From: Spirochaetaceae bacterium
Lineage (GTDB): Bacteria > Spirochaetota > Spirochaetia > DSM-2461
DNA: 64,000 bases
NCBI GenBank assembly: GCA_051531975.1
Contig: JAOPTT010000003.1
Span: forward strand, 32,001 to 96,000
Reading direction: 5' to 3'
Below, one piece after another: positions 5,317-47,882 of this stretch; the first letter of the stretch is position 1; every line of letters begins with the position of its first letter. Position numbers and translations under genes: made by a program. A model generated the notes under the pieces. The model made no database searches, had not been told where the DNA came from, and saw only the letters and a list, made by a program, of their open reading frames with translations.

Positions 5317-6747
5317 TTAGGTGTGAAATTCTAAATAATTTATAAGTAATTTCCAAATATCCATAATAGTAGAAACTAACATTTTTTCATCTGGACAATG
5401 TGGACTTTTAATAGTTGGCCCTATGGAAATCATCTGCATTTCTGGATATTTTGCTCCAATAACGCCACACTCTAATCCTGCATGTATAACTTCTATTACT
5501 GGGTCTTTTGAAAATACATCTTTATAACTCGCTGTGAACTTCTTTAAAACTGCTGAGTGAAAGTCTGGTTGCCATGAGGGATAACCTCCACCAAACCGGG
5601 CTGAGCCATTAGCTAATGAAACAACAGAATCTATTTTATCACATAACTCATCTAACCTCGACATAACAGAACTTCTTTGACTCATGAGTATTTTAAAGTC
5701 CTTTTCAGAAGTAGATAAAACTGCAAGATTACAGGACGTTTCAACTATTCCCTCCATCTCTTTTGAATAATTTGCTACTCCGTGGGGAAGTGCCAAAATA
5801 AGATCAATTATACTTCTATCACTAAAACTTGAAACATTATCACTTGGAGTTAATTCTAATGTAATTCCTGTGTCTGATGAAAAAAACTCATTTTTAATAA
5901 CATCTATTAAGGTTAGCAATGTATCTTGTGCTTTTTTCATGTCAGTTGATTTTAAACATATAGTAGCTGAACTATCTCTAGCTATTGCATTATGAGCACT
6001 CCCACCACTTATGTTGTTTATACCAAAATCAATATCTACCTTTGTAAGACTATTTAATAGCCTGGCTAATATTATATTTGCATTAGCTTTCTCTAGATGT
6101 ATTTCAACACCAGAATGACCACCTTTTAGTCCTCCTATAATTAAAGTTAAACTTTGATCAAAATCTTTATTTAAGTATGGTTTTCTCTTAGTTGTAATTT
6201 TTGCATCTCGACCACCAGCACAGCCTATTGTAAAAACACCTTCGTCTTCTGAATCGATATTAATTAGGGTCTTACCAGTTAACCAGTTTGTAGGTAAGTT
6301 AACAGCTCCTGTTAATCCAGTCTCTTCATCTACCGTAAATATTAGTTCTAGTGGAGGATGTTTTACATCTGGATCTATTGATAAAGCCATTGCTATTGCT
6401 AAAGCTATTCCATTATCTGCACCTAATGAAGTTTCAGTTGCTTTTAACCAGCCATCTTCTTGATACATTTTTATTGGATCTGTAGCAAAATTATGTTTTG
6501 AACCTACAATTTTTTCACATACCATATCCATATGACCTTGAAAAATAATAGTTTCTCTGTCTTCATATCCCGCTGATCCTGGAACTTTTATTAAAACATC
6601 TAAATATGTATCCCGTTCTACTTCAAAATGGTTTTTTGTAGCCCAATCAACTAGCCAGTCTGATATTGCTTCTTCGTTTTTAGACTTTCTAGGGATGTTA
6701 TTTATTTCTGTAAATATGTCTAATATGTTCTCTAATTTTAAATTCAT
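5317..6747 (-). CDS. pepD: Aminoacyl-histidine dipeptidase (peptidase D, M20C)
   Basis: QGHMDMVCEK, LGADNGI, TVDEETG, DSEDEG, GGHSG, IHAGLECG and SPHCPDE. Start placed at ATG 6747, after a GAGGA RBS. Confidence 0.93.
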   Translation of the reverse strand: MNLKLENILDIFTEINNIPRKSKNEEAISDWLVDWATKNHFEVERDTYLDVLIKVPGSAGYEDRETIIFQGHMDMVCEKIVGSKHNFATDPIKMYQEDGWLKATETSLGADNGIALAIAMALSIDPDVKHPPLELIFTVDEETGLTGAVNLPTNWLTGKTLINIDSEDEGVFTIGCAGGRDAKITTKRKPYLNKDFDQSLTLIIGGLKGGHSGVEIHLEKANANIILARLLNSLTKVDIDFGINNISGGSAHNAIARDSSATICLKSTDMKKAQDTLLTLIDVIKNEFFSSDTGITLELTPSDNVSSFSDRSIIDLILALPHGVANYSKEMEGIVETSCNLAVLSTSEKDFKILMSQRSSVMSRLDELCDKIDSVVSLANGSARFGGGYPSWQPDFHSAVLKKFTASYKDVFSKDPVIEVIHAGLECGVIGAKYPEMQMISIGPTIKSPHCPDEKMLVSTIMDIWKLLINYLEFHT

Positions 6748-40002: not shown

Positions 40003-40959
40003 TTATGCTCTAGATTTTTTATCTTTATTCATAGAATCGATTCCTACAACTACAAGGATAATTAATCCTTTTACTAAGTACTGAATGTAAACTTGAACAC
40101 CTAGTAGGTTAAACATATTCCCAATAATCGAAAGAATTAAAACACCAACAAGAGTACCAACAACACTACCCTCTCCACCGGAGACACTAGTTCCACCAAT
40201 AACAGTTGCTGCTATTGCATCAAGTTCATATCCCTGGCCTGCTAATGGAGTTGCAGAGTTTAGTCTGGAGGCATAAACAATACCTGCCATTGCAGCCATC
40301 CCTCCTCCTATTACAAATGTCATTATCTGGTAATAATCAACAGACACCCCAGATAATCTAGTGGCTTCTTTGTTTCCACCAACTGCACATGAATAACGTC
40401 CTAAAGGTGTCTTGTTTAGAGTAAATTGCCACACTACAACCATAAATACAAGAAGTATTATAGGAAATGGAATTGGACCTATATAACCTGAACCGATAAA
40501 TCTAAAACTATCTGAATATCCAGTTATAGGGTATCCTCCAGTATAAAGATAGGTTAATCCACGGACGATTGTCATTGTTCCTAATGTAGCAATTATTGAT
40601 ACTATTTTAATTTTAGCAGCCAATATACCATTTGCAAGACCAACAAAAGAACCAACAGCCAAAGCTATAACAACTGCAAATCCCCATGGCATTACCCCTT
40701 GTAGACCTAATACAACAGCAGCAGATAGAGCAAGTGTTGATCCAACTGAGATATCAAATCCTCCACCAATTATTACATAGGTAGTACCGATTGCCATAAT
40801 CCCAATAATAGAACTCTGTCTTAATATATTTAAAATATTTCTTGACGTTAAAAAGTTAGGAGTTATTATGGAAATAACCAAACAAATAACACTAAATATT
40901 ATCATTATGCCGTATTTCTTAAAAATATCCCGTATTTTAGTGTTTACAATATTAGTCAT
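40003..40959 (-). CDS. Monosaccharide ABC transporter permease (RbsC-like)
   Basis: GGFDISVGS, IATLGTM, AVGGNKEATRLSG and GYELDAIAATVIGGTS. Confidence 0.93.
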   Translation of the reverse strand: MTNIVNTKIRDIFKKYGIMIIFSVICLVISIITPNFLTSRNILNILRQSSIIGIMAIGTTYVIIGGGFDISVGSTLALSAAVVLGLQGVMPWGFAVVIALAVGSFVGLANGILAAKIKIVSIIATLGTMTIVRGLTYLYTGGYPITGYSDSFRFIGSGYIGPIPFPIILLVFMVVVWQFTLNKTPLGRYSCAVGGNKEATRLSGVSVDYYQIMTFVIGGGMAAMAGIVYASRLNSATPLAGQGYELDAIAATVIGGTSVSGGEGSVVGTLVGVLILSIIGNMFNLLGVQVYIQYLVKGLIILVVVGIDSMNKDKKSRA

Positions 40960-42451
40960 TAATTTCTCCTTCTAATAATTTATTATAGATCTCTTTTTCT
41001 GAAACCCCTCGGTTACATATTTCATGGATATGACCTTTTTTCATTATCATTATTCTGTCTGAAATACCAACAATCTCAGGTACTTCTGTAGAGATAAATA
41101 TTATGGTCTTCCCTTTATCAGAAAGGTCCTGTACGATTTTATATATTGCATCCTTTGCTCCAACATCAACACCTCTAGTTGGCTCATCCATAATAATTAT
41201 ATCAGGGGCAGCTTCCAACCATTTCCCAATTATCACTTTCTGCTGGTTCCCACCACTAAGGGTTTTAACATCCTGATAAATTGAATTAATCTTAACATTC
41301 ATTTTATTTATTATTGATTTGGTTGATAGTTTCTCAGATTCAAAGGAGATCAAACCTTTAGTAACATGTTTTTCTAACGAGGCAAGTGTACAATTTGTTA
41401 CGACAGAATGTTCCTGTATTAGTCCTACTTTTTTCCGATCTTCAGGAAGCAGACCAATACCTAGCTTTTTACCTTTTTTAGGACTGGAGATTATAACTTT
41501 TTTATTGTTTATATAAATGTTTCCAGAGGTTGCTCTATCCCCACCAAACAGAACCATAGCTAGTTCAGTTTTTCCAGCACCGATAACCCCGGTAATACCT
41601 AAGACCTCACCCTTATAAACAGAGAAAGAGACGTTTTTTACTTTATTAAAAAAAGATAAGTTCTCAACTCTCAGAATCTCAGAATCAAAGCTTTTATTAC
41701 TTTTTTTCACACAACTACTCTGAAAGTCCTCTCCTACCATCATTTTTATTATTTTTTGCTCTGTAACGTCTTGAATATCTACTGTACCAACAAACTTCCC
41801 ATCTTTTAAAACAGTAGCTCGATCTGCTATCTCAAATACCTCTGATAAATAGTGAGTAATATATATTATTGTGACATTTTTTTTTCTAAGTTCAGCAATT
41901 ATAGAGAAAAGGTATTCAGTCTCTTTGTCTGTTAATGCATCTGTAGGTTCATCCATTATAATCAGGTTTGAATTCCTGGATATACACTTTAAGATCTCAA
42001 CTAGTTTCTTTTCTGCTGCGGTTAAGTTATATACTATGATTTCAGGATCGAAGTAAAACCCCATTTTTTCACATAATATATCATATCTTTCTCGGTTTTT
42101 TTTATTATTAAAAATTCCAAATTTTGATTTCTCTTCAACACCAAGGAATACATTATCTATTATTGATAGCTCTTCTATTAGACTTGTTTCTTGAAATATA
42201 ACTCCAATACCATTGTTGTAGGCTTGTGCTGGTGTCTGGTAACTACTCTTTTTTCCATTTAATAAAATAGTTCCATTGTCTCTATGGTATACCCCAGTTA
42301 TTATCTTTATAAGTGTCGACTTTCCTGCACCGTTCTCACCTAACAAAGCATGGATTTCTCCACTATTTATATCGAAGGATATATCATCTAAAACTTTTAC
42401 TCCAAAAAAGGACTTATTAATGTTCTTAATCTGTAAAACTTTCTCGGTCAT
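40952..42451 (-). CDS. Monosaccharide ABC transporter ATP-binding protein (RbsA-like, tandem NBD)
   Basis: GENGAGKST, MDEPT, YITH, PEDRK, LSGGNQQK and DEPTRGVDVGAK. Confidence 0.94.
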   Translation of the reverse strand: MTEKVLQIKNINKSFFGVKVLDDISFDINSGEIHALLGENGAGKSTLIKIITGVYHRDNGTILLNGKKSSYQTPAQAYNNGIGVIFQETSLIEELSIIDNVFLGVEEKSKFGIFNNKKNRERYDILCEKMGFYFDPEIIVYNLTAAEKKLVEILKCISRNSNLIIMDEPTDALTDKETEYLFSIIAELRKKNVTIIYITHYLSEVFEIADRATVLKDGKFVGTVDIQDVTEQKIIKMMVGEDFQSSCVKKSNKSFDSEILRVENLSFFNKVKNVSFSVYKGEVLGITGVIGAGKTELAMVLFGGDRATSGNIYINNKKVIISSPKKGKKLGIGLLPEDRKKVGLIQEHSVVTNCTLASLEKHVTKGLISFESEKLSTKSIINKMNVKINSIYQDVKTLSGGNQQKVIIGKWLEAAPDIIIMDEPTRGVDVGAKDAIYKIVQDLSDKGKTIIFISTEVPEIVGISDRIMIMKKGHIHEICNRGVSEKEIYNKLLEGEIND

Positions 42452-43671
42452 ATTAATTTCCTGCCTAATACCTTAAAGTGGTTATCAGGAATATGAATAA
42501 TGTTCCATGAAGCGACAACTCCTAAAACTTCTTCTTGTAAAGAGTCTATATAACCATCTAACATACCTTCCGATATTTTAGTAGAGAAGTAGGGACAATT
42601 TACAATTTCTAATCCACTATAAATAGGTACAGAATTATTAACCTGTTTTTGTGCTATCTTAAGATCTACTAATGCATTTTTTGGATCAACACCATTTTTT
42701 TCAATTTCAATTAAATTGTTTGGTAATTCAAAACCAAAATGTCTTTGCAAAAATCTAAGAAAGGCACTTTCTGAAACCTTAGGTGCAAGATTTCTAAAAC
42801 CATTAGTTAAACATATAATTTCCAGTGGGAATGCTGCTGGACCCATGGCGTAACAGTAAGACATGGTTTTAATCCAATCACATTGTGTAGAAAGTAGTGA
42901 ATAATCCTGTCCTGTAAAAAATGATAAACCTGGTGATAAAAGATCCAAACCAACTATTTTATCATTATTAAATCCATATTTATTATAAAGACTAACAGCC
43001 TTATATATCTGATTTCTCTTATATTGAAAAAAGGAACTAAAATCCTCAAATATTTTTTCAAAATTATTAAAACTATTTAATTTTTTATCATCTAATGTTG
43101 AAATCTTTTTATAGAAATTTGAAACCTTACTCATTTCAGATTTTAAGTCCATATTTTGTTCTAGACAGTAAGATGAATAGGATGTAAAAAAAGTAGAAAA
43201 AATTGACTCAAAACCATTAGCTGGAGAGGTATATCTAACTCTATCCAGGAAAACACCGTCATATTCATACTCTTCCATAGAAGATTTAAATTGGTTGAAA
43301 TTATTATCATTTATTAGATTATCAGTAGGATCTACAAATAAAAAACCTTCCTCACCCTTCCCAATTTTGTCCCATATACCTGATAGGTCTAAATCCTTGT
43401 GATAGGGTACTTGTGCCATGTTCTTTGTAGTTATATCTATATGGTTCATATCTGCAAAAACAGGATGCCAAAGATATGTTTCAATTTTGTTTTCTTTACA
43501 GAAATTTATAATTTCTTTTGTGTCATCTGAAGGATTTACATCCCAGATCATCAGCTTTTTCAGATCAAGATAGCCTTTTGTCCGGGCGATCTTATCTTTA
43601 ATGTCAGCCAAAGAGAAGGATTCCTTCTCTTCGACTCCAAGATAAAGCTGAGTACTATAATTAATACTCAT
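42448..43671 (-). CDS. Uncharacterised soluble protein, possible TIM-barrel glycoside-hydrolase-like enzyme
   Basis: No signal peptide. YDGVFLDRVRY, GQDY and DWIKTMSYC. Embedded in the ABC operon with an ATGA overlap. Confidence 0.55.
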   Translation of the reverse strand: MSINYSTQLYLGVEEKESFSLADIKDKIARTKGYLDLKKLMIWDVNPSDDTKEIINFCKENKIETYLWHPVFADMNHIDITTKNMAQVPYHKDLDLSGIWDKIGKGEEGFLFVDPTDNLINDNNFNQFKSSMEEYEYDGVFLDRVRYTSPANGFESIFSTFFTSYSSYCLEQNMDLKSEMSKVSNFYKKISTLDDKKLNSFNNFEKIFEDFSSFFQYKRNQIYKAVSLYNKYGFNNDKIVGLDLLSPGLSFFTGQDYSLLSTQCDWIKTMSYCYAMGPAAFPLEIICLTNGFRNLAPKVSESAFLRFLQRHFGFELPNNLIEIEKNGVDPKNALVDLKIAQKQVNNSVPIYSGLEIVNCPYFSTKISEGMLDGYIDSLQEEVLGVVASWNIIHIPDNHFKVLGRKLI

Positions 43672-43692
43672 TCTAAATTCCTTTTCCTTAAT

Positions 43693-44649
43693 TTAAAGTT
43701 CTGCTACTACACTATCAACGTTTTCTATACTTACAATTTCTGGAATAATTGAAATAATTTTATCCACTTTGTCTCCATTTAAGACTTTAGAAGCTGTTTG
43801 AACTGCAATGTAACCCATACTTGAAATTGATGCATTTGAAGTCATGTCAACTTTTCCTTCTTTGATATAAGGAATTAGCTCTTTAGAAAATTCTAAGCCC
43901 GTAATATTAACTTTGTAATCCAATCCGGCTTCTTCAACTGCTTCTGCTGCTGCAGATGCTGCGGAATACCACTGACAACTGATTAAGTCGATCTTTTCAC
44001 CTTTTTGTAAACTTGCCTCAACTGCACCTAGTGCGCCCTCTTTTGTCCAACCTGGAATACTTTGGCTATAAATAATGTTCCAGTTACTATGTTTTGCAAC
44101 AACTTCTTTAAAAGCTTTTGATCTCAATCTTTGTGGAGCTGTTCCAGCTGTTCCTTCAATTAATACAATATTAGAAGGTTCATTTCCTAATAGAGATTCA
44201 GCCATTTCACCCATTAAAAATCCTAGATATTCATCGTTAATTCCAATGAAACTTTCAACACCTTCAACATCTCCAGTTGGGTCTTCACCTAGTATGTTTG
44301 TAAATGTAATAAGAGGAATTCCAGCGTCCTGACAAAGCTCTATTGATGGTAACAGTGCTATATTGTCAGCTGAGCATAAAAGAATAACATCAACACCTCT
44401 GGCAACAAAGTTCTCCATCTGAGTTAACTGCTTACCAGCATCCCATTCCGCATCAGAATATATAAGATCTAATCCGAACTCTTTAGCTGCTTCATCCATT
44501 CCTTTACGTTGGATCATAAAGAACTCAACACTTCCAGGAAACAATACCGCGACTTGTGGGTTCCCACTTTTACTTTCATTTGTTCCACTTGCAAAAACGG
44601 TTGAAACTAATGTTACTAACAACAACAATGCTAAAATTTTCTTAGTCAT
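43693..44649 (-). CDS. Sugar ABC transporter substrate-binding protein (RbsB-like)
   Basis: Signal peptide ending VFASG, then DAEWDAGKQ..ENFVARGVD and IEGTAG..RSKAF. Confidence 0.88.
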   Translation of the reverse strand: MTKKILALLLLVTLVSTVFASGTNESKSGNPQVAVLFPGSVEFFMIQRKGMDEAAKEFGLDLIYSDAEWDAGKQLTQMENFVARGVDVILLCSADNIALLPSIELCQDAGIPLITFTNILGEDPTGDVEGVESFIGINDEYLGFLMGEMAESLLGNEPSNIVLIEGTAGTAPQRLRSKAFKEVVAKHSNWNIIYSQSIPGWTKEGALGAVEASLQKGEKIDLISCQWYSAASAAAEAVEEAGLDYKVNITGLEFSKELIPYIKEGKVDMTSNASISSMGYIAVQTASKVLNGDKVDKIISIIPEIVSIENVDSVVAEL

Positions 44650-44681
44650 AAAAACTCCTATAGTATTTTTACAATTACATA

Positions 44682-44698
44682 CGCAATACCCGTGCCAA
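44682..44698 (-). promoter_or_regulatory. sigma54 (-24/-12) promoter of the sugar ABC operon
   Basis: The minus strand reads TTGGCACGGGTATTGCG, an exact TGGCAC-N5-TTGC match, 33 bp upstream of the binding-protein start. Confidence 0.88.
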
Positions 44699-44750
44699 TT
44701 TTTTAAGTCACTATTTAATTAGTTTTAGTAGATTCAATTCTAATAAATGG

Positions 44751-44773
44751 GTAATAAATTGCACATTTATTAC
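44751..44773. promoter_or_regulatory. Inverted repeat: candidate enhancer (UAS) or kinase-gene terminator
   Basis: GTAATAAAT-TGCAC-ATTTATTAC, upstream of the sigma54 site across an AT-rich tract. Confidence 0.45.
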
Positions 44774-44787
44774 ACCTCGTGCACGTT

Positions 44788-46584
44788 TTACACATCCAAA
44801 GCTTCAGGAATAGAGACATAAAAAATAGTTTTATCTTCTATCTCTTTAAATCCAATCTCTCCTCTATGGTCTTCAACAATCTGTTTTGATATAGCTAGAC
44901 CTAGTCCTGTATTTTTTTTTGTAACCTTAGTAGTAAAAAATGGATCAAATATTTTGGATTTTTTATCTAGGTTAACTCCAGATCCATTATCTTCAACGCT
45001 CAAAATTACACTGTTATTCTTTTTTTTAATCTCTACATCTATTATGCCTTCGTCTAAAACTGCTTCGATGCTGTTAATTACAAGATTTATAATTACCTGT
45101 TTTAATTTACTAGAATTTCCATTTACAAGATATTCTTGGTTATCATCGATGTTTAGGTTCAAAGATATATCCTTCGTTTTAATTTTATATTCCAGCAGAA
45201 CCAGGGTTTCTAATAATATCTCTTTTAGGTCTATAGTAGTCTTACCACTTTGCATCTTTGAAAATGATAATAAACTGCCTGTAATTTCTTCAATCCTCGA
45301 TAACTCTTTTTCTATCTTCTGAATTTTTTCCTGACTATTAATATCAGTAATTTTCATTTTTAGAAGTTCTGTATAATTTGATATAATTGCCAAAGGATTA
45401 TTTATTTCGTGGACAACTCCTGCTGCAAGTTCAGCTAAAGAGAAAACTTTGTCTGCACCAATTTTATACTCCTGCATATGACATTTTTCTGTTACATCTT
45501 CTAACATAATTATAGAATCATCTGCTTCATTATCATTTGCTAGTGGAAATATAACGATGTCCATAAATTTACCATTTATGAGTTCCACCGAGGATAAACT
45601 AAGATGAAAATTCTTTGTAAGTGATGAAAGAATAAGTTCTTTGGAATTTTTATCTATAACAAATCCTTCCTGTAATCGTTCTAGAAAGTTTTCTCCACTG
45701 TTATCCATATCTAGAATATCTATTGCACTTCGGTTTATTACTGAAACTCTTTTTTGGTTATTAAAAACAATTATTCCCTCTTTTAGCTCATCAATTATAG
45801 ATTTAGAATATCTTTTTTCTAAAAATGAGTCCCAATCATTTCCTGCTGTTAATAATTTTGCATAGGAGAGTTCAACAAGTTTACTTTTGTCTACATTTTT
45901 TATATCCTCGGTTCCTTGCCTTCTTCCATCTTTTAAAATTGTAATTCTGTCTGCAAAATCAAAATCTTCATTAATGTTAGAAAAAATGTAGATTATACTT
46001 TTCCCCTTATTTTTAAGTTTTCCTAACAGCGTGTGTAATATTTTTAACTCTTCTGTTTTGAATCTTGATGACACCTCATCTAATATAAGAACATCAGGAT
46101 TATGAATCAGTGCTTTAGCAATCTCAATAAAATTTCTATTAAAAGGAGAGAGTTTTTTTACTGGAATGTTTAGATTAAAGTCTACATTAAATTCAGACAT
46201 TAACTGCTTCAGGTTTTTTAACATTTCTGCTCTTTTTAAAGTTTTAAAAATATTAGTTATAAATCTGCCAGAATATACGTTTTCATAAGAATTAAAATCG
46301 AGGATTAGATTGCTATATTGGTAAATTACTGAAATATTCTGATTTAGAGAATCTTTGGGTCTTAAGAACTCAACAACATTTCCATCTAATAAAATTTTTC
46401 CTTTATATTTTTTACACGCTCCTGTTAATATATTAACAACTGAGGATTTCCCACAAAAATGTTCTCCGTATAAGGCGTGAATCTCTCCCTCTTTCAGATC
46501 AAAGGAGAAATTCTGTAGGGCAAATACATTCTCTTCTCTATAAACAGAGATATTTTTTAGAACTAATTTATTTGCTCCCTTCAC
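44788..46584 (-). CDS. Fusion protein: degenerate sugar-ABC ATPase domain, PAS-like domain, histidine kinase
   Basis: Residues ~1-245 are RbsA-like (GEIHALYGEHFCGKS, VIYQ, ILDEVSS, ADRITILKDG). A PAS-like segment (EGIIVFN..INRSA) follows. Kinase boxes: H GVVHEINNPL, N NLVINSIEA, G1 DNGSG, F FDPFFTTK, G2 TGLGL. No TM segments. Confidence 0.9.
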   Translation of the reverse strand: MKGANKLVLKNISVYREENVFALQNFSFDLKEGEIHALYGEHFCGKSSVVNILTGACKKYKGKILLDGNVVEFLRPKDSLNQNISVIYQYSNLILDFNSYENVYSGRFITNIFKTLKRAEMLKNLKQLMSEFNVDFNLNIPVKKLSPFNRNFIEIAKALIHNPDVLILDEVSSRFKTEELKILHTLLGKLKNKGKSIIYIFSNINEDFDFADRITILKDGRRQGTEDIKNVDKSKLVELSYAKLLTAGNDWDSFLEKRYSKSIIDELKEGIIVFNNQKRVSVINRSAIDILDMDNSGENFLERLQEGFVIDKNSKELILSSLTKNFHLSLSSVELINGKFMDIVIFPLANDNEADDSIIMLEDVTEKCHMQEYKIGADKVFSLAELAAGVVHEINNPLAIISNYTELLKMKITDINSQEKIQKIEKELSRIEEITGSLLSFSKMQSGKTTIDLKEILLETLVLLEYKIKTKDISLNLNIDDNQEYLVNGNSSKLKQVIINLVINSIEAVLDEGIIDVEIKKKNNSVILSVEDNGSGVNLDKKSKIFDPFFTTKVTKKNTGLGLAISKQIVEDHRGEIGFKEIEDKTIFYVSIPEALDV

Positions 46585-47882
46585 ATCATGTCCAGTTTCT
46601 TCATTTTGTTATATAAAGTTTTTCTATGTATTTTTAATATATCAGCCGCTTTTTGTTTTGAACCATCAGCCTCTTTTAATGCGTTAATAATTATCACTTT
46701 ACTTAAGGTATTTAGTAAAATTTCTGGGCTATTTTCTGTTACTTTTTCGATCATTGAATACTGAGAGGATAAATTACCCATATTAATATTTTCTGTTTTA
46801 CAAAAAATTACTGCTCGTTCCATACAATTTTTTAATTCTCTAATATTCCCAGGCCAAGAGTGTTTAATGAGTTGATCTATTACGTTCTGTTCTACCCCGT
46901 GGATTACTTTCCCATACTGAGTACAGAATTTGATTCTAAAAAAATCTATTAAATCTACAATATCTTCTTTTCTCTCTCTAAGAGGAGGAAGTTCTAATGT
47001 TATTACGGATAATCGATAATAGAGGTCTTCTCTAAAAAGTCCACTTTCTATTAACTTCTGGAAGTTTTTATTAGTTGCTACAACAAAACGGATATCAGTT
47101 TTTATAACCTTTGTACCACCAAGCCGTGTAAACTCCTGTTCCTGTAGCACTCTTAAAATTTTTGCTTGAGTAGTTAGAGACATGTCTGCTATTTCATCTA
47201 AAAAGAGTGTTCCTGTATGGGCAAGTTCAAACTTTCCTTGGTACTGTCTATCAGCACCTGTAAATGCTCCTTTTTCGTGTCCAAATAGTTCACTTTCTAA
47301 TAGAGACTCAGATAAGGCAGCACTATTAACTTTTATAAACGGCTTATCTTTTCTTGAACTTTCACTATGGATTAAACCTGCAATAAGTTCTTTACCTGTT
47401 CCACTCTCCCCAGTAATAATTACAGATGCATTACTTTTAGCTGCAATTTCCAGTGTCTCATAGACAGCTATCATTCTTCTGTTTCGACTATGTCTTTCAG
47501 GTTTAAATGTACTGCTTGTTGATACTAAGTTCCCATATTTTTCTATATTACTTAATAATTTTGGAAGTTTTATTGGTTTGGATAAAAAATCAATGGCTCC
47601 ATATTTCATGGCATCTACTGCTTTATCTACTGTAGGATATCCTGTCATAACAATTACATGGATCTCCGGGTTAGCTGTCTTAATCTCTTTTAAAAGATTT
47701 AACCCACCTTTCCCAGGCATTTGAATATCCGTAATAACAAATTGTGGAGGATTTTTGAGTATCTGCTCTAAGGCCAGAATAGGATCGGTATTGTATTTCA
47801 CGTGAAAATTCATCTCAATTAAAATTTCAGATAGTGATAGACACATCTCCTGTTCATCATCAACAATAAATATAGTATTCAT
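46581..47882 (-). CDS. sigma54-dependent response regulator (NtrC/AtoC family)
   Basis: Receiver (IVDDE, TDIQMP, SKP), GESGTGKE, GAFTGA, FLDEI, FREDLYYRL, WPGNIREL and a Fis-type HTH. Confidence 0.95.
   Translation of the reverse strand: MNTIFIVDDEQEMCLSLSEILIEMNFHVKYNTDPILALEQILKNPPQFVITDIQMPGKGGLNLLKEIKTANPEIHVIVMTGYPTVDKAVDAMKYGAIDFLSKPIKLPKLLSNIEKYGNLVSTSSTFKPERHSRNRRMIAVYETLEIAAKSNASVIITGESGTGKELIAGLIHSESSRKDKPFIKVNSAALSESLLESELFGHEKGAFTGADRQYQGKFELAHTGTLFLDEIADMSLTTQAKILRVLQEQEFTRLGGTKVIKTDIRFVVATNKNFQKLIESGLFREDLYYRLSVITLELPPLRERKEDIVDLIDFFRIKFCTQYGKVIHGVEQNVIDQLIKHSWPGNIRELKNCMERAVIFCKTENINMGNLSSQYSMIEKVTENSPEILLNTLSKVIIINALKEADGSKQKAADILKIHRKTLYNKMKKLDMM

Follow-up and report, generated by a model that had tools for sequence, protein, structure and literature searches.

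We analysed a 64-kb window (64,000 nucleotides) of a metagenome-derived assembly of a Spirochaetaceae bacterium, in which six minus-strand genes occupy positions 40003-47882. They encode a sigma-54-dependent response regulator of the NtrC type, a histidine kinase that carries the nucleotide-binding domain (NBD) of an ATP-binding cassette (ABC) transporter at its N-terminus (hereafter NBD-kinase), a sugar-binding protein, a glycoside hydrolase (GH)-like protein, and the ATPase and permease of a CUT2-type importer (Table 1). The GTG start of the kinase gene overlaps the TGA stop codon of the regulator gene by 4 nt (GTGA), as had been read in the original prediction, which was made from the sequence of this locus, and the importer genes overlap or abut on one strand. 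The flanking genes (GNAT, GFO/IDH/MocA oxidoreductase, DapB_C-like and alpha/beta hydrolase) are unrelated to these functions, so the module is self-contained. The locus is best explained as a six-gene, self-regulating sugar-uptake module with a cytoplasmic kinase.

Table 1. Features of the NBD-kinase locus; positions refer to the window and kinase residue numbers to the 598-aa protein.
Feature	Position	Strand	Evidence or remark
NtrC-type sigma-54 response regulator, 433 aa	46581-47882	-	Response_reg 87.9 bits, Sigma54_activat 228 bits, HTH_8 43.9 bits (Pfam)
NBD-kinase, 598 aa, GTG start	44788-46584	-	ABC_tran + HisKA + HATPase_c (Pfam), PAS fold
Kinase residues 1-245, single ABC NBD of CUT2 NBD1 type	45850-46584	-	Pfam ABC_tran, BLASTP, AlphaFold2, Foldseek
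Kinase residues 246-363: linker, conserved YNE..IL..LP entry motif, PAS fold	45496-45849	-	AlphaFold2, Foldseek, family conservation profile
Kinase residues 364-598: phosphotransfer and catalytic domains, stop codon included	44788-45495	-	HisKA 52.6 bits, HATPase_c 75.2 bits
Perfect inverted repeat GTAATAAAT-N5-ATTTATTAC	44751-44773	-	Read from sequence
Sigma-54 -24/-12 element TGGCAC-GGGTA-TTGC (TGGCACGGGTATTGC)	44683-44697	-	33 nt upstream of the binding-protein ATG
Periplasmic sugar-binding protein, 318 aa	43693-44649	-	Peripla_BP_4 166.6 bits (Pfam)
GH-like (beta/alpha)8-barrel protein, 407 aa, predicted cytoplasmic	42448-43671	-	Fold only
CUT2-type ABC ATPase, two fused NBDs, 499 aa	40952-42451	-	ABC_tran in two stretches, 179.4 bits (Pfam)
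RbsC-type permease, 318 aa	40003-40959	-	BPD_transp_2 155.4 bits (Pfam)

The domain composition of the kinase was established by Pfam searches and structure prediction. The protein matched ABC_tran (residues 23-171, E 1.2e-21, 78.2 bits against a cut-off of 25), HisKA (residues 383-447, 52.6 bits against 26.9) and HATPase_c (residues 490-594, 75.2 bits against 26.4). The PAS_7 match reached 17.3 bits, under the cut-off of 27; at the PAS position the AlphaFold2 (AF2) model contains a five-stranded alpha/beta module (residues ~262-363), and many homologues of the kinase carry precomputed PAS matches. The model, built on a 150-row alignment, had a mean predicted local distance difference test (pLDDT) value of 88.6. 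Its NBD (residues 1-245) was confident (pLDDT >90) and the linker (residues 245-260) was of low confidence; a long dimerisation and histidine phosphotransfer (DHp) hairpin spans residues 365-442 and the catalytic and ATP-binding (CA) domain residues 449-594. The best Foldseek match of the kinase was the LOV-DHp-CA protein 4gcz (E 3.8e-24), the NBD matched NBDs of the LptB/LivG type (TM score 0.85-0.87 on the target), and the sequence match to the PDB entry 3a0r spanned residues 257-594. The phosphoacceptor region contains H392 within the H-box HEINNPL, and the N, G1, F and G2 boxes are all present in the CA domain. Residues H392, N504, G534, G560 and G562 were invariant across 150 kinase-family sequences. 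With these boxes and both Pfam matches above their cut-offs, the protein belongs to the HisKA class of histidine kinases, and the claim of the original prediction that all kinase boxes are intact was upheld. The same prediction had described the kinase as lacking transmembrane (TM) helices, in agreement with the hydropathy profile, in which no peak of TM strength was present: the highest 19-aa Kyte-Doolittle mean was 1.59 and lay within the CA domain, whereas the permease reached 2.44. No NCBIfam model fitted the kinase, the best being AtoS (193 bits) and AraG (154 bits), both far under their cut-offs. The AtoS match (NF008468; 193.4 bits, cut-off 646) covered residues 257-584 only and ZraS scored 133 bits; the kinase is therefore not an AtoS equivalog, and the ‘AtoS’ labels given to homologues in JGI are best-hit transfers. 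Mean conservation among 150 family members was 0.43 for the NBD and 0.45 for the CA domain; with 0.33, the PAS domain was the least conserved.

The N-terminal domain of the kinase had been proposed to be colinear with the first NBD of the neighbouring ATPase, and the BLASTP alignment confirmed it. Kinase residues 19-281 were 33% identical to NBD1 of that ATPase over 270 aa (E 1e-36), and the identity to its NBD2 was 26% over 204 aa. All the strings on which the comparison had been based (GEIHALYGEHFCGKS, VIYQ, DEVS, YIFS and ADRITILKDG) were found in the translations. The NCBIfam models of CUT2 ATPases matched the NBD (residues 7-248 only) with 154 bits for AraG (cut-off 689), 141 bits for MglA and 132 bits for RbsA (cut-off 745); with a single NBD and scores far under the cut-offs (689-850), the kinase is not a member of any of these equivalog families. 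The origin of the domain was evaluated in a tree of 77 rows, comprising 39 kinase NBDs, the 17 NBD1 and 17 NBD2 halves of the CUT2 ATPases of this genome and four single-NBD outgroups. The tree was obtained by a quick search with support from the Shimodaira-Hasegawa-like approximate likelihood ratio test (SH-aLRT) in place of a bootstrap. All 39 kinase NBDs fell into one clade (SH-aLRT 100), which joined the 17 NBD1 halves (SH-aLRT 97), separate from the 17 NBD2 halves (SH-aLRT 97). The three NBD-kinase paralogues of this genome sat in different sub-clades. The NBD1 of a kinase's own neighbour was not the closest to the kinase NBD (mean rank 7.9 of 17, with 9.0 expected). Since the neighbour's NBD1 was no closer than those of other ATPases, the fusion is ancient and did not arise by local copying. 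Recent duplication or gene conversion from the neighbouring ATPase was ruled out by the single kinase-NBD clade and by this rank. As judged from these alignments and the tree, the kinase NBD arose once, long ago, from the N-terminal half of a CUT2 ATPase of the RbsA type.

The state of the catalytic motifs was determined for the window protein and for 150 family members chosen as full-length. The Walker A motif of the kinase (GEHFCGKS) retains the Lys and Ser, has Phe in place of the fourth Gly and fits the looser pattern GxxxxGK[ST]. Within the family, the Walker A Lys was retained in 147/150 members, the fourth position was Gly in 80/150 and Arg in 44/150, and the Walker A Asn was replaced by His in 77%. 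The Q-loop Gln (Q89 in VIYQ) was kept in 126/150 members. The earlier claim that the Walker A Lys and the Q-loop are intact thus held for both the window protein and most of its family. Walker B (VLILDE, D169 and E170) is complete; its Asp was found in 144/150 and its catalytic Glu in 131/150 members. The signature reads LSPFNR, and no SGG was present anywhere in the family. NBD1 of the neighbouring ATPase likewise lacks LSGGQ (LTAAEKK), indicating that the loss of the signature dates back to the CUT2 NBD1 lineage and did not arise in the kinases. The D-loop (SSRF) has lost its Asp, a position occupied by Lys or Arg in 118/150 members, and in the H-loop (FSN) the His is replaced by Ser, although it was retained in 89/150 members. 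The Pro-Thr following Walker B, found in every one of 41 true NBD1s, remains in 3% of the kinase family, and the C-terminal MVGR motif of NBD1 is replaced family-wide. The changes common to the family cluster where NBDs meet each other (D-loop, post-Walker B and Walker A Asn). The original prediction had considered the motifs for hydrolysis eroded, which was an overstatement: the window protein lacks the H-loop His, the D-loop Asp, the Pro-Thr, the fourth Gly of Walker A and an LSGGQ-type signature, but its Walker B Asp-Glu (ILDE) is intact. Its designation of the domain as a ‘pseudo-NBD’ fits this clade, i.e., the window protein and its two closest relatives, all of which have lost both the H-loop His and the fourth Gly of Walker A, and it does not fit the family at large, where the catalytic Glu and the H-loop His are so often retained. 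Judged by its Walker A Lys, Walker B Asp and Q-loop, the NBD looks able to bind ATP, and ATP hydrolysis is very unlikely in this clade. In our reading of the motif counts, selection acts on nucleotide binding and the Q-loop, the NBD:NBD interface is remodelled, and hydrolysis is dispensable, at least in this clade.

The domain architecture was searched for in sequence collections and in genomes, as the original prediction had suggested, and a large family linked to importers was recovered. Among the 120 best matches of a word search, 91 (including the window's own protein) combined ABC_tran, HisKA and HATPase_c in approximately 600 aa. The identities to the kinase were 76%, 67% and then at most 41%, and the named matches were metagenome-assembled genomes (MAGs) of Spirochaetota. 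In an exhaustive phmmer search of 1.84 billion representatives, approximately 124 of the best 150 representatives at 50% identity were colinear over their full length. A hidden Markov model (HMM) search identified full-length copies in 13 of 301 sampled genomes of the phylum, belonging to at least seven families and including two closed single-contig genomes (G030 and G094); these hits were read by query coverage and four candidates were scored per genome, so that the copy numbers are lower bounds. One family locus was found in a KSB3 MAG. The genome of the window itself contains three NBD-kinase paralogues; the other two, L087 (contig C9, 282436-284280) and L088 (C9, 358417-360240), were 36% and 30% identical to the window kinase. 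An assembly or frameshift artefact joining a fragment of an ABC ATPase to a kinase gene might be imagined in a metagenome-derived assembly such as this one. Among sequencing runs, one DNA run contained the stretch, which may be the sample it was assembled from, and no RNA run was listed. We found no point in support of an artefact, and it is extremely improbable, as the reading frame is open without a break, colinear homologues of approximately 600 aa occur at 21-76% identity in many independent assemblies, full-length copies are present in the 13 phylum genomes, closed ones among them, and in three paralogues of the same genome, and the AF2 model is confident across the junction except for the short linker. 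Misassembly was thus refuted by the homologues. Both a sequencing error and a lack of full-length homologues, which the original prediction had named as grounds for giving up the fusion, proved not to apply, and the fusion is genuine. The family is conserved in spirochaetes and apparently unstudied. It comprises more than 100 clusters at 50% identity without a curated family model, and its members are mislabelled in databases as ‘AtoS’ or ‘ATP-binding cassette domain-containing protein’.

The linkage of the kinase to the regulator and the importer was examined in 30 pooled loci (three from this genome, 12 from genome contigs and 15 from other genomes of the phylum); no pair between the sets of 12 and 15 loci was 95% identical or more. 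The regulator adjoined the NBD-kinase in 29/30 loci, the remaining locus being cut at a contig end. An importer with a BPD_transp_2-type permease adjoined the kinase in 28/30 loci, the exceptions being L008, which is truncated, and L130, a genuine exception. A -24/-12 element, accepted with at most one mismatch and with GG and GC fixed, faced the importer operon in 23/30 loci. These counts bear out the linkage to an NtrC-type activator and a sigma-54-promoted sugar importer that had been read from the single locus, and homologues unlinked to sugar ABC operons, the third ground for refutation named in the original prediction, were not the rule. In L130 (3809-15135), a sigma-54-like element (6305-6319, minus strand) faces a gene for a Big_5 and ice-binding-like protein. 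The genome of the window (G000) encodes 17 two-NBD CUT2 ATPases and three NBD-kinases, and each kinase gene is found within approximately 3 kb of one ATPase gene, after a sigma-54 regulator gene and next to its own operon for a binding protein, an ATPase and a permease. The kinase genes of L087 and L088 are divergent from their CUT2 importers; in L087 a gene for a methyl-accepting chemotaxis protein directly follows the permease gene, and L088 contains two permease genes. The partner importers vary across the family, with one permease in some loci and two in others. In L123 (2430-7782), the ATPase is a single-NBD protein of 265 aa, and the genes are ordered binding protein-permease-ATPase, followed by GatZ/KbaZ-like and PfkB genes. 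The partner of the L133 kinase appears similar, so the kinase family is not restricted to two-NBD partners. L005 (2950-9800) contains two regulator-kinase modules back to back, each with its own CUT2 importer, which suggests that the whole module duplicates as a unit. A metagenome scan with kinase-generic patterns yielded seven full-length family members among 80 loci, mostly on short contigs, which were left out of the counts for the 30 loci. One of them, L140, repeats the gene order of the window, including the GH-like gene.

The regulator has the composition of an NtrC-family enhancer-binding protein, with a receiver domain, an AAA+ domain containing GAFTGA in its translation and a Fis-type helix-turn-helix, and rpoN is present in the genome (Sigma54_DBD 174 bits at C13:137711-138187). 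A consensus sigma-54 promoter had been predicted downstream of the kinase gene, ahead of the binding-protein gene, and TGGCAC-GGGTA-TTGC was found there (Table 1) as the sole match in the window. In the whole genome (5.46 Mb), 13 exact TGGCAC-N5-TTGC sites were present, compared to 2.3 expected from base composition. Two of the 13 (C3:76683 and C9:361704) lie directly upstream of binding-protein genes adjoining NBD-kinase paralogues. Several exact sites lie within approximately 100 nt of other sigma-54 activator genes (e.g., C14:179024-179038, C17:4916-4930 and C13:58246-58260), and the sites thereby outline a small sigma-54 regulon. The perfect 9-bp inverted repeat between the kinase stop codon and the sigma-54 element, approximately 66 nt upstream of the -24 position, may represent an activator-binding site. 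A scan for sigma-70 promoters and terminators was uninformative in DNA of 32% GC: it returned 56 promoter-like sites against 42.4 expected, and the finding of no minus-strand terminator between the kinase and binding-protein genes is likewise uninformative at this GC content. Taken together, regulatory wiring from the kinase to the regulator and on to the sigma-54-dependent importer operon is highly probable.

The importer genes fit a CUT2 system, as a Peripla_BP_4 protein, a two-NBD ATPase and a BPD_transp_2 permease are encoded in one operon. The binding protein matched best to RbsB in NCBIfam (89 bits against a cut-off of 337) and its N-terminus is a hydrophobic segment of signal or lipoprotein type (hydropathy peak of 2.22 at residue 5). 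The ATPase scored 489 bits with RbsA and 482 bits with AraG, both below the equivalog cut-offs, and the permease 273.6 bits with the ribose permease model (cut-off 398). With all equivalog scores below cut-off, the importer substrate is not assignable. The permease was 70-90% identical to more than 100 clusters of spirochaete permeases, and it is far more conserved across relatives than the kinase (at most 41% past two close relatives). In L004 and L140, an apparently orthologous transporter is paired with a kinase only 33-34% identical to that of the window; the binding proteins of these loci were 53-56% and the permeases 61-66% identical to those of the window and look orthologous. The 407-aa protein encoded between the binding-protein and ATPase genes had no Pfam match, no NCBIfam match of note and no PDB sequence match, and a word search of 5.8 billion proteins detected only eight relatives. 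Its nearest ESM Atlas cluster was annotated as ‘Glycosyl hydrolase-like 10 domain-containing protein’ (score 0.98). The AF2 model (pLDDT 90, predicted TM score 0.91) is a (beta/alpha)8 barrel, for which Foldseek returned the C-terminal domain of PgaB (4p7q, E 2.3e-8), Cwp19 and beta-amylase. No signal sequence was seen in the hydropathy profile. Homologues of the gene occupy the same position between binding-protein and ATPase genes in L004 and L140. Judged by its modelled fold, the protein is probably a cytoplasmic glycosidase for an imported glycoside.

The original prediction had further proposed that the NBD docks on the permease or pairs with the ATPase. Co-divergence was evaluated by Mantel and partial Mantel tests of distances in 17 modules with all four proteins. 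The NBD distances correlated with those of the permease (r 0.47) and the ATPase (r 0.50), compared to 0.32 and 0.33 for the kinase core. When the core was taken into account, the partial r of the NBD was 0.40 for the permease, 0.36 for NBD1 of the ATPase and 0.52 for its NBD2, and in each of the three comparisons a value as high was reached in 1/5001 permutations. The corresponding values for the core given the NBD were -0.18, -0.13 and -0.30, and the PAS domain had a partial r of 0.10-0.15 with the transporter proteins, which was not significant. The kinase core distances tracked those of the regulator (r 0.95). Two parts of the same protein thus diverge with different partners, the NBD with the transporter and the core with the regulator. 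Modelling of the N-domain with the permease was then evaluated as a complex of two permease copies with kinase residues 1-250, in three runs and with three controls. The complex scored 0.56 in all three runs, compared to 0.00, 0.03 and 0.00 for the controls (best control 0.03), a result graded as ‘weak support’; the runs agreed in at least 89% of contacts, with a partner pLDDT of at least 78. In the calibration, the mark was reached by 116/157 solved complexes and 2/215 mismatched pairs, and at scores up to 0.60 by only 18/157 solved complexes and by both of the passing mismatches. No PDB chain matched the permease by sequence at E <=0.001, making recall of a solved CUT2 complex unlikely. The proposed contact with the transporter is thus weakly supported by the complex score and by co-divergence in the 17 modules.

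These data are consistent with a mechanism in which the NBDs of the kinase dimer dock on the cognate permease dimer and convert binding-protein docking or the transport state into kinase activity, with the regulator firing the sigma-54 promoter of the importer; we regard this proposal as the most likely mechanism, at about even odds. Both NBDs would sit on the cytoplasmic coupling helices of the RbsC-type permease dimer, like the transporter's own ATPase. The docking of a sugar-loaded binding protein on the permease would change the separation or closure of the two NBDs, and this movement would pass through the conserved linker and the PAS domain to the DHp/CA core. The kinase would then phosphorylate the NtrC-type regulator, which would activate the sigma-54 promoter ahead of the genes for the binding protein, the GH-like enzyme, the ATPase and the permease, generating positive feedback. 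As members of the family almost always adjoin such a pump and a sigma-54 activator, the kinase probably reads the pump itself to switch the pump on. In this scheme, we infer ATP binding, the permease contact, the direction of signalling and the identity of the promoter driven by the regulator. In a further variant, which we hold tentatively and at less than even probability, the kinase dimer, the permease dimer and the binding protein outside would form a dedicated signalling ABC complex that transports nothing. In its pair of NBD1-type domains, an ATP-binding Walker A would lie opposite a degenerate signature on each side, and the pair would form a clamp glued by ATP, whose closure depends on the docking of liganded binding protein.

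Several observations weigh against docking on the permease. In a set of only 17 modules that are related to each other, Mantel and partial Mantel tests give inflated significance, and a joint exchange of NBD and transporter would give the same pattern of co-divergence. By the calibration, most passes at this score are false unless the proposed contact was likely beforehand, and the docking of an NBD on coupling helices is generic to ABC systems, so the predictor may reproduce it with any NBD. The importer operon includes a gene for a complete ATPase, and this ATPase would compete for the permease sites in question. The cytoplasmic permease loop GGNKEATRLSG, which we take to be the EAA/coupling helix, was near-invariant in 53 aligned permeases, including three from the two other kinase-linked importers of this genome; with 17 CUT2 systems encoded there, a kinase would then have no obvious means of finding its own permease. 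The kinase also has a PAS domain, to which a cytoplasmic ligand could bind. Finally, the regulator-kinase pair of L130 lies beside a LacI-type regulator and araB/araD/araA, with no ABC genes within 8 kb.

Alternatively, the kinase might make no contact with the transporter and sense a cytoplasmic cue. The PAS domain might bind this cue, for example the imported sugar or a metabolite, or the NBD might respond to the ATP/ADP state. The NBD would then be a nucleotide-dependent dimerisation or regulatory switch, and the importer merely the target operon. The PAS domain varies more than any other domain (mean conservation 0.33), which would be expected of a ligand pocket that determines specificity, the core is similar to that of cytoplasmic PAS kinases (3a0r and 4gcz), the arabinose catabolic genes of L130 occur without an adjacent importer, and the importer already has its ATPase. 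We nevertheless consider this explanation rather unlikely. The Q-loop Gln, which mediates coupling to the membrane domain in ABC proteins, is retained in most of the family (126/150); it is the NBD and not the PAS domain that co-diverges with permease and ATPase; the adjacency to importers (28/30) is tighter than that of typical regulator-target pairs; and the complex prediction passes its controls, albeit weakly. The kinase NBD might alternatively pair with the transporter ATPase, either with an NBD2-type domain (LSGGNQQ) or with a single-NBD protein, and report its nucleotide or engagement state. An NBD1-type domain with a Walker A and without a signature would form a head-to-tail dimer, following a logic similar to MalK-MalT or PstB-PhoU-PhoR, with an NBD:NBD contact as the route. 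This would agree with the strongest partial correlation of the kinase NBD being that with the neighbour's NBD2 (0.52, versus 0.40 for the permease and 0.36 for NBD1) and with the family-specific changes at the NBD:NBD interface (D-loop Lys/Arg, post-Walker B and Walker A Asn to His), and a free NBD partner is easier to imagine with the single-NBD ATPase of L123 and the apparently similar one of L133. On the other hand, NBD2 of a two-NBD ATPase shares a chain with its own NBD1, and this NBD1 would win over any partner acting in trans, and the gap between the correlations is small and comes from 17 non-independent modules; such pairing is quite improbable.

The original prediction knew of no characterised kinase with this architecture, and our full-text searches of literature available without subscription likewise retrieved no paper describing an ABC-NBD-histidine kinase. 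We see the NBD-kinase as a putative case of transporter-coupled two-component sensing in which the input domain is of a new type. Its PAS-DHp-CA part matches AtoS and ZraS, and its partner is a receiver-AAA+-HTH_8 activator, as in systems of the AtoS, ZraS and NtrB type with NtrC-family regulators; however, AtoS and ZraS reside in the membrane and receive periplasmic or TM input, and the NBD input is unique to the NBD-kinase family. With the CUT2 ATPases (RbsA, AraG, MglA and XylG) the kinases have in common the GEIHAL-G-E motif, the Q-loop, Walker B and a non-canonical signature, but those ATPases contain two NBDs, compared to the single one of the kinase, and the PT, the D-loop Asp, the Walker A Asn and MVGR are replaced in the kinases. 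In the maltose system of E. coli, the importer NBD subunit MalK conveys the transport status to the transcription regulator MalT. In contrast to the NBD-kinase, MalK is a working ATPase that sequesters MalT via its C-terminal regulatory domain, with neither a phosphorelay nor a fusion.

The Pst-PhoR system of E. coli is similar in that a kinase lacking a periplasmic sensor has been proposed to respond to the conformation of an ABC importer from the cytoplasmic side, with a PAS domain between input and core. Mutants of PstB fixed in an open or a closed state signal sufficiency or starvation (PMC5775613). PstB, PhoU and the membrane-anchored PhoR are, however, separate proteins and PstB is a working ATPase, whereas the kinase described here is soluble and carries an additional, covalently fused domain of NBD1 origin, PhoU is absent, the importer keeps its ATPase and the output is sigma-54-dependent. 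In the BceAB-BceS type of system in Firmicutes, the kinase is unable to sense by itself and relies on an adjacent ABC transporter, which is in turn induced by the two-component system (PMC9169098, PMC3023708). BceS differs as an intramembrane-sensing kinase that contacts the permease in the membrane; BceAB is of the exporter type and nothing is fused. CbrA and CrbS are fusions of an SLC5 symporter domain, STAC and a histidine kinase (PMC7096432, PMC5715377). They resemble the NBD-kinase in that a transporter module is covalently fused to a kinase as input, but this module is the membrane-embedded permease of a secondary transporter, while here it is the soluble ATP-binding engine of an ABC system and the kinase has no membrane segment.

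The way in which ABC transporters inform kinases, as in Pst-PhoU-PhoR and BceAB-BceS, has been debated for decades, in part because the contacts between the separate proteins are transient. In the NBD-kinase the suspected interface element, the NBD, is welded to the kinase, making ATP binding, NBD closure and kinase output measurable in one polypeptide. The module also offers a sugar-responsive sigma-54 switch with defined parts. If the dedicated signalling complex existed, the power stroke of an ABC transporter would have been turned into a receptor mechanism, and an extracellular sugar signal would reach a kinase without its own membrane segment. If the NBD docks on the permease, the family would sense extracellular sugar without a TM segment in the sensor and would represent a new class of two-component input.

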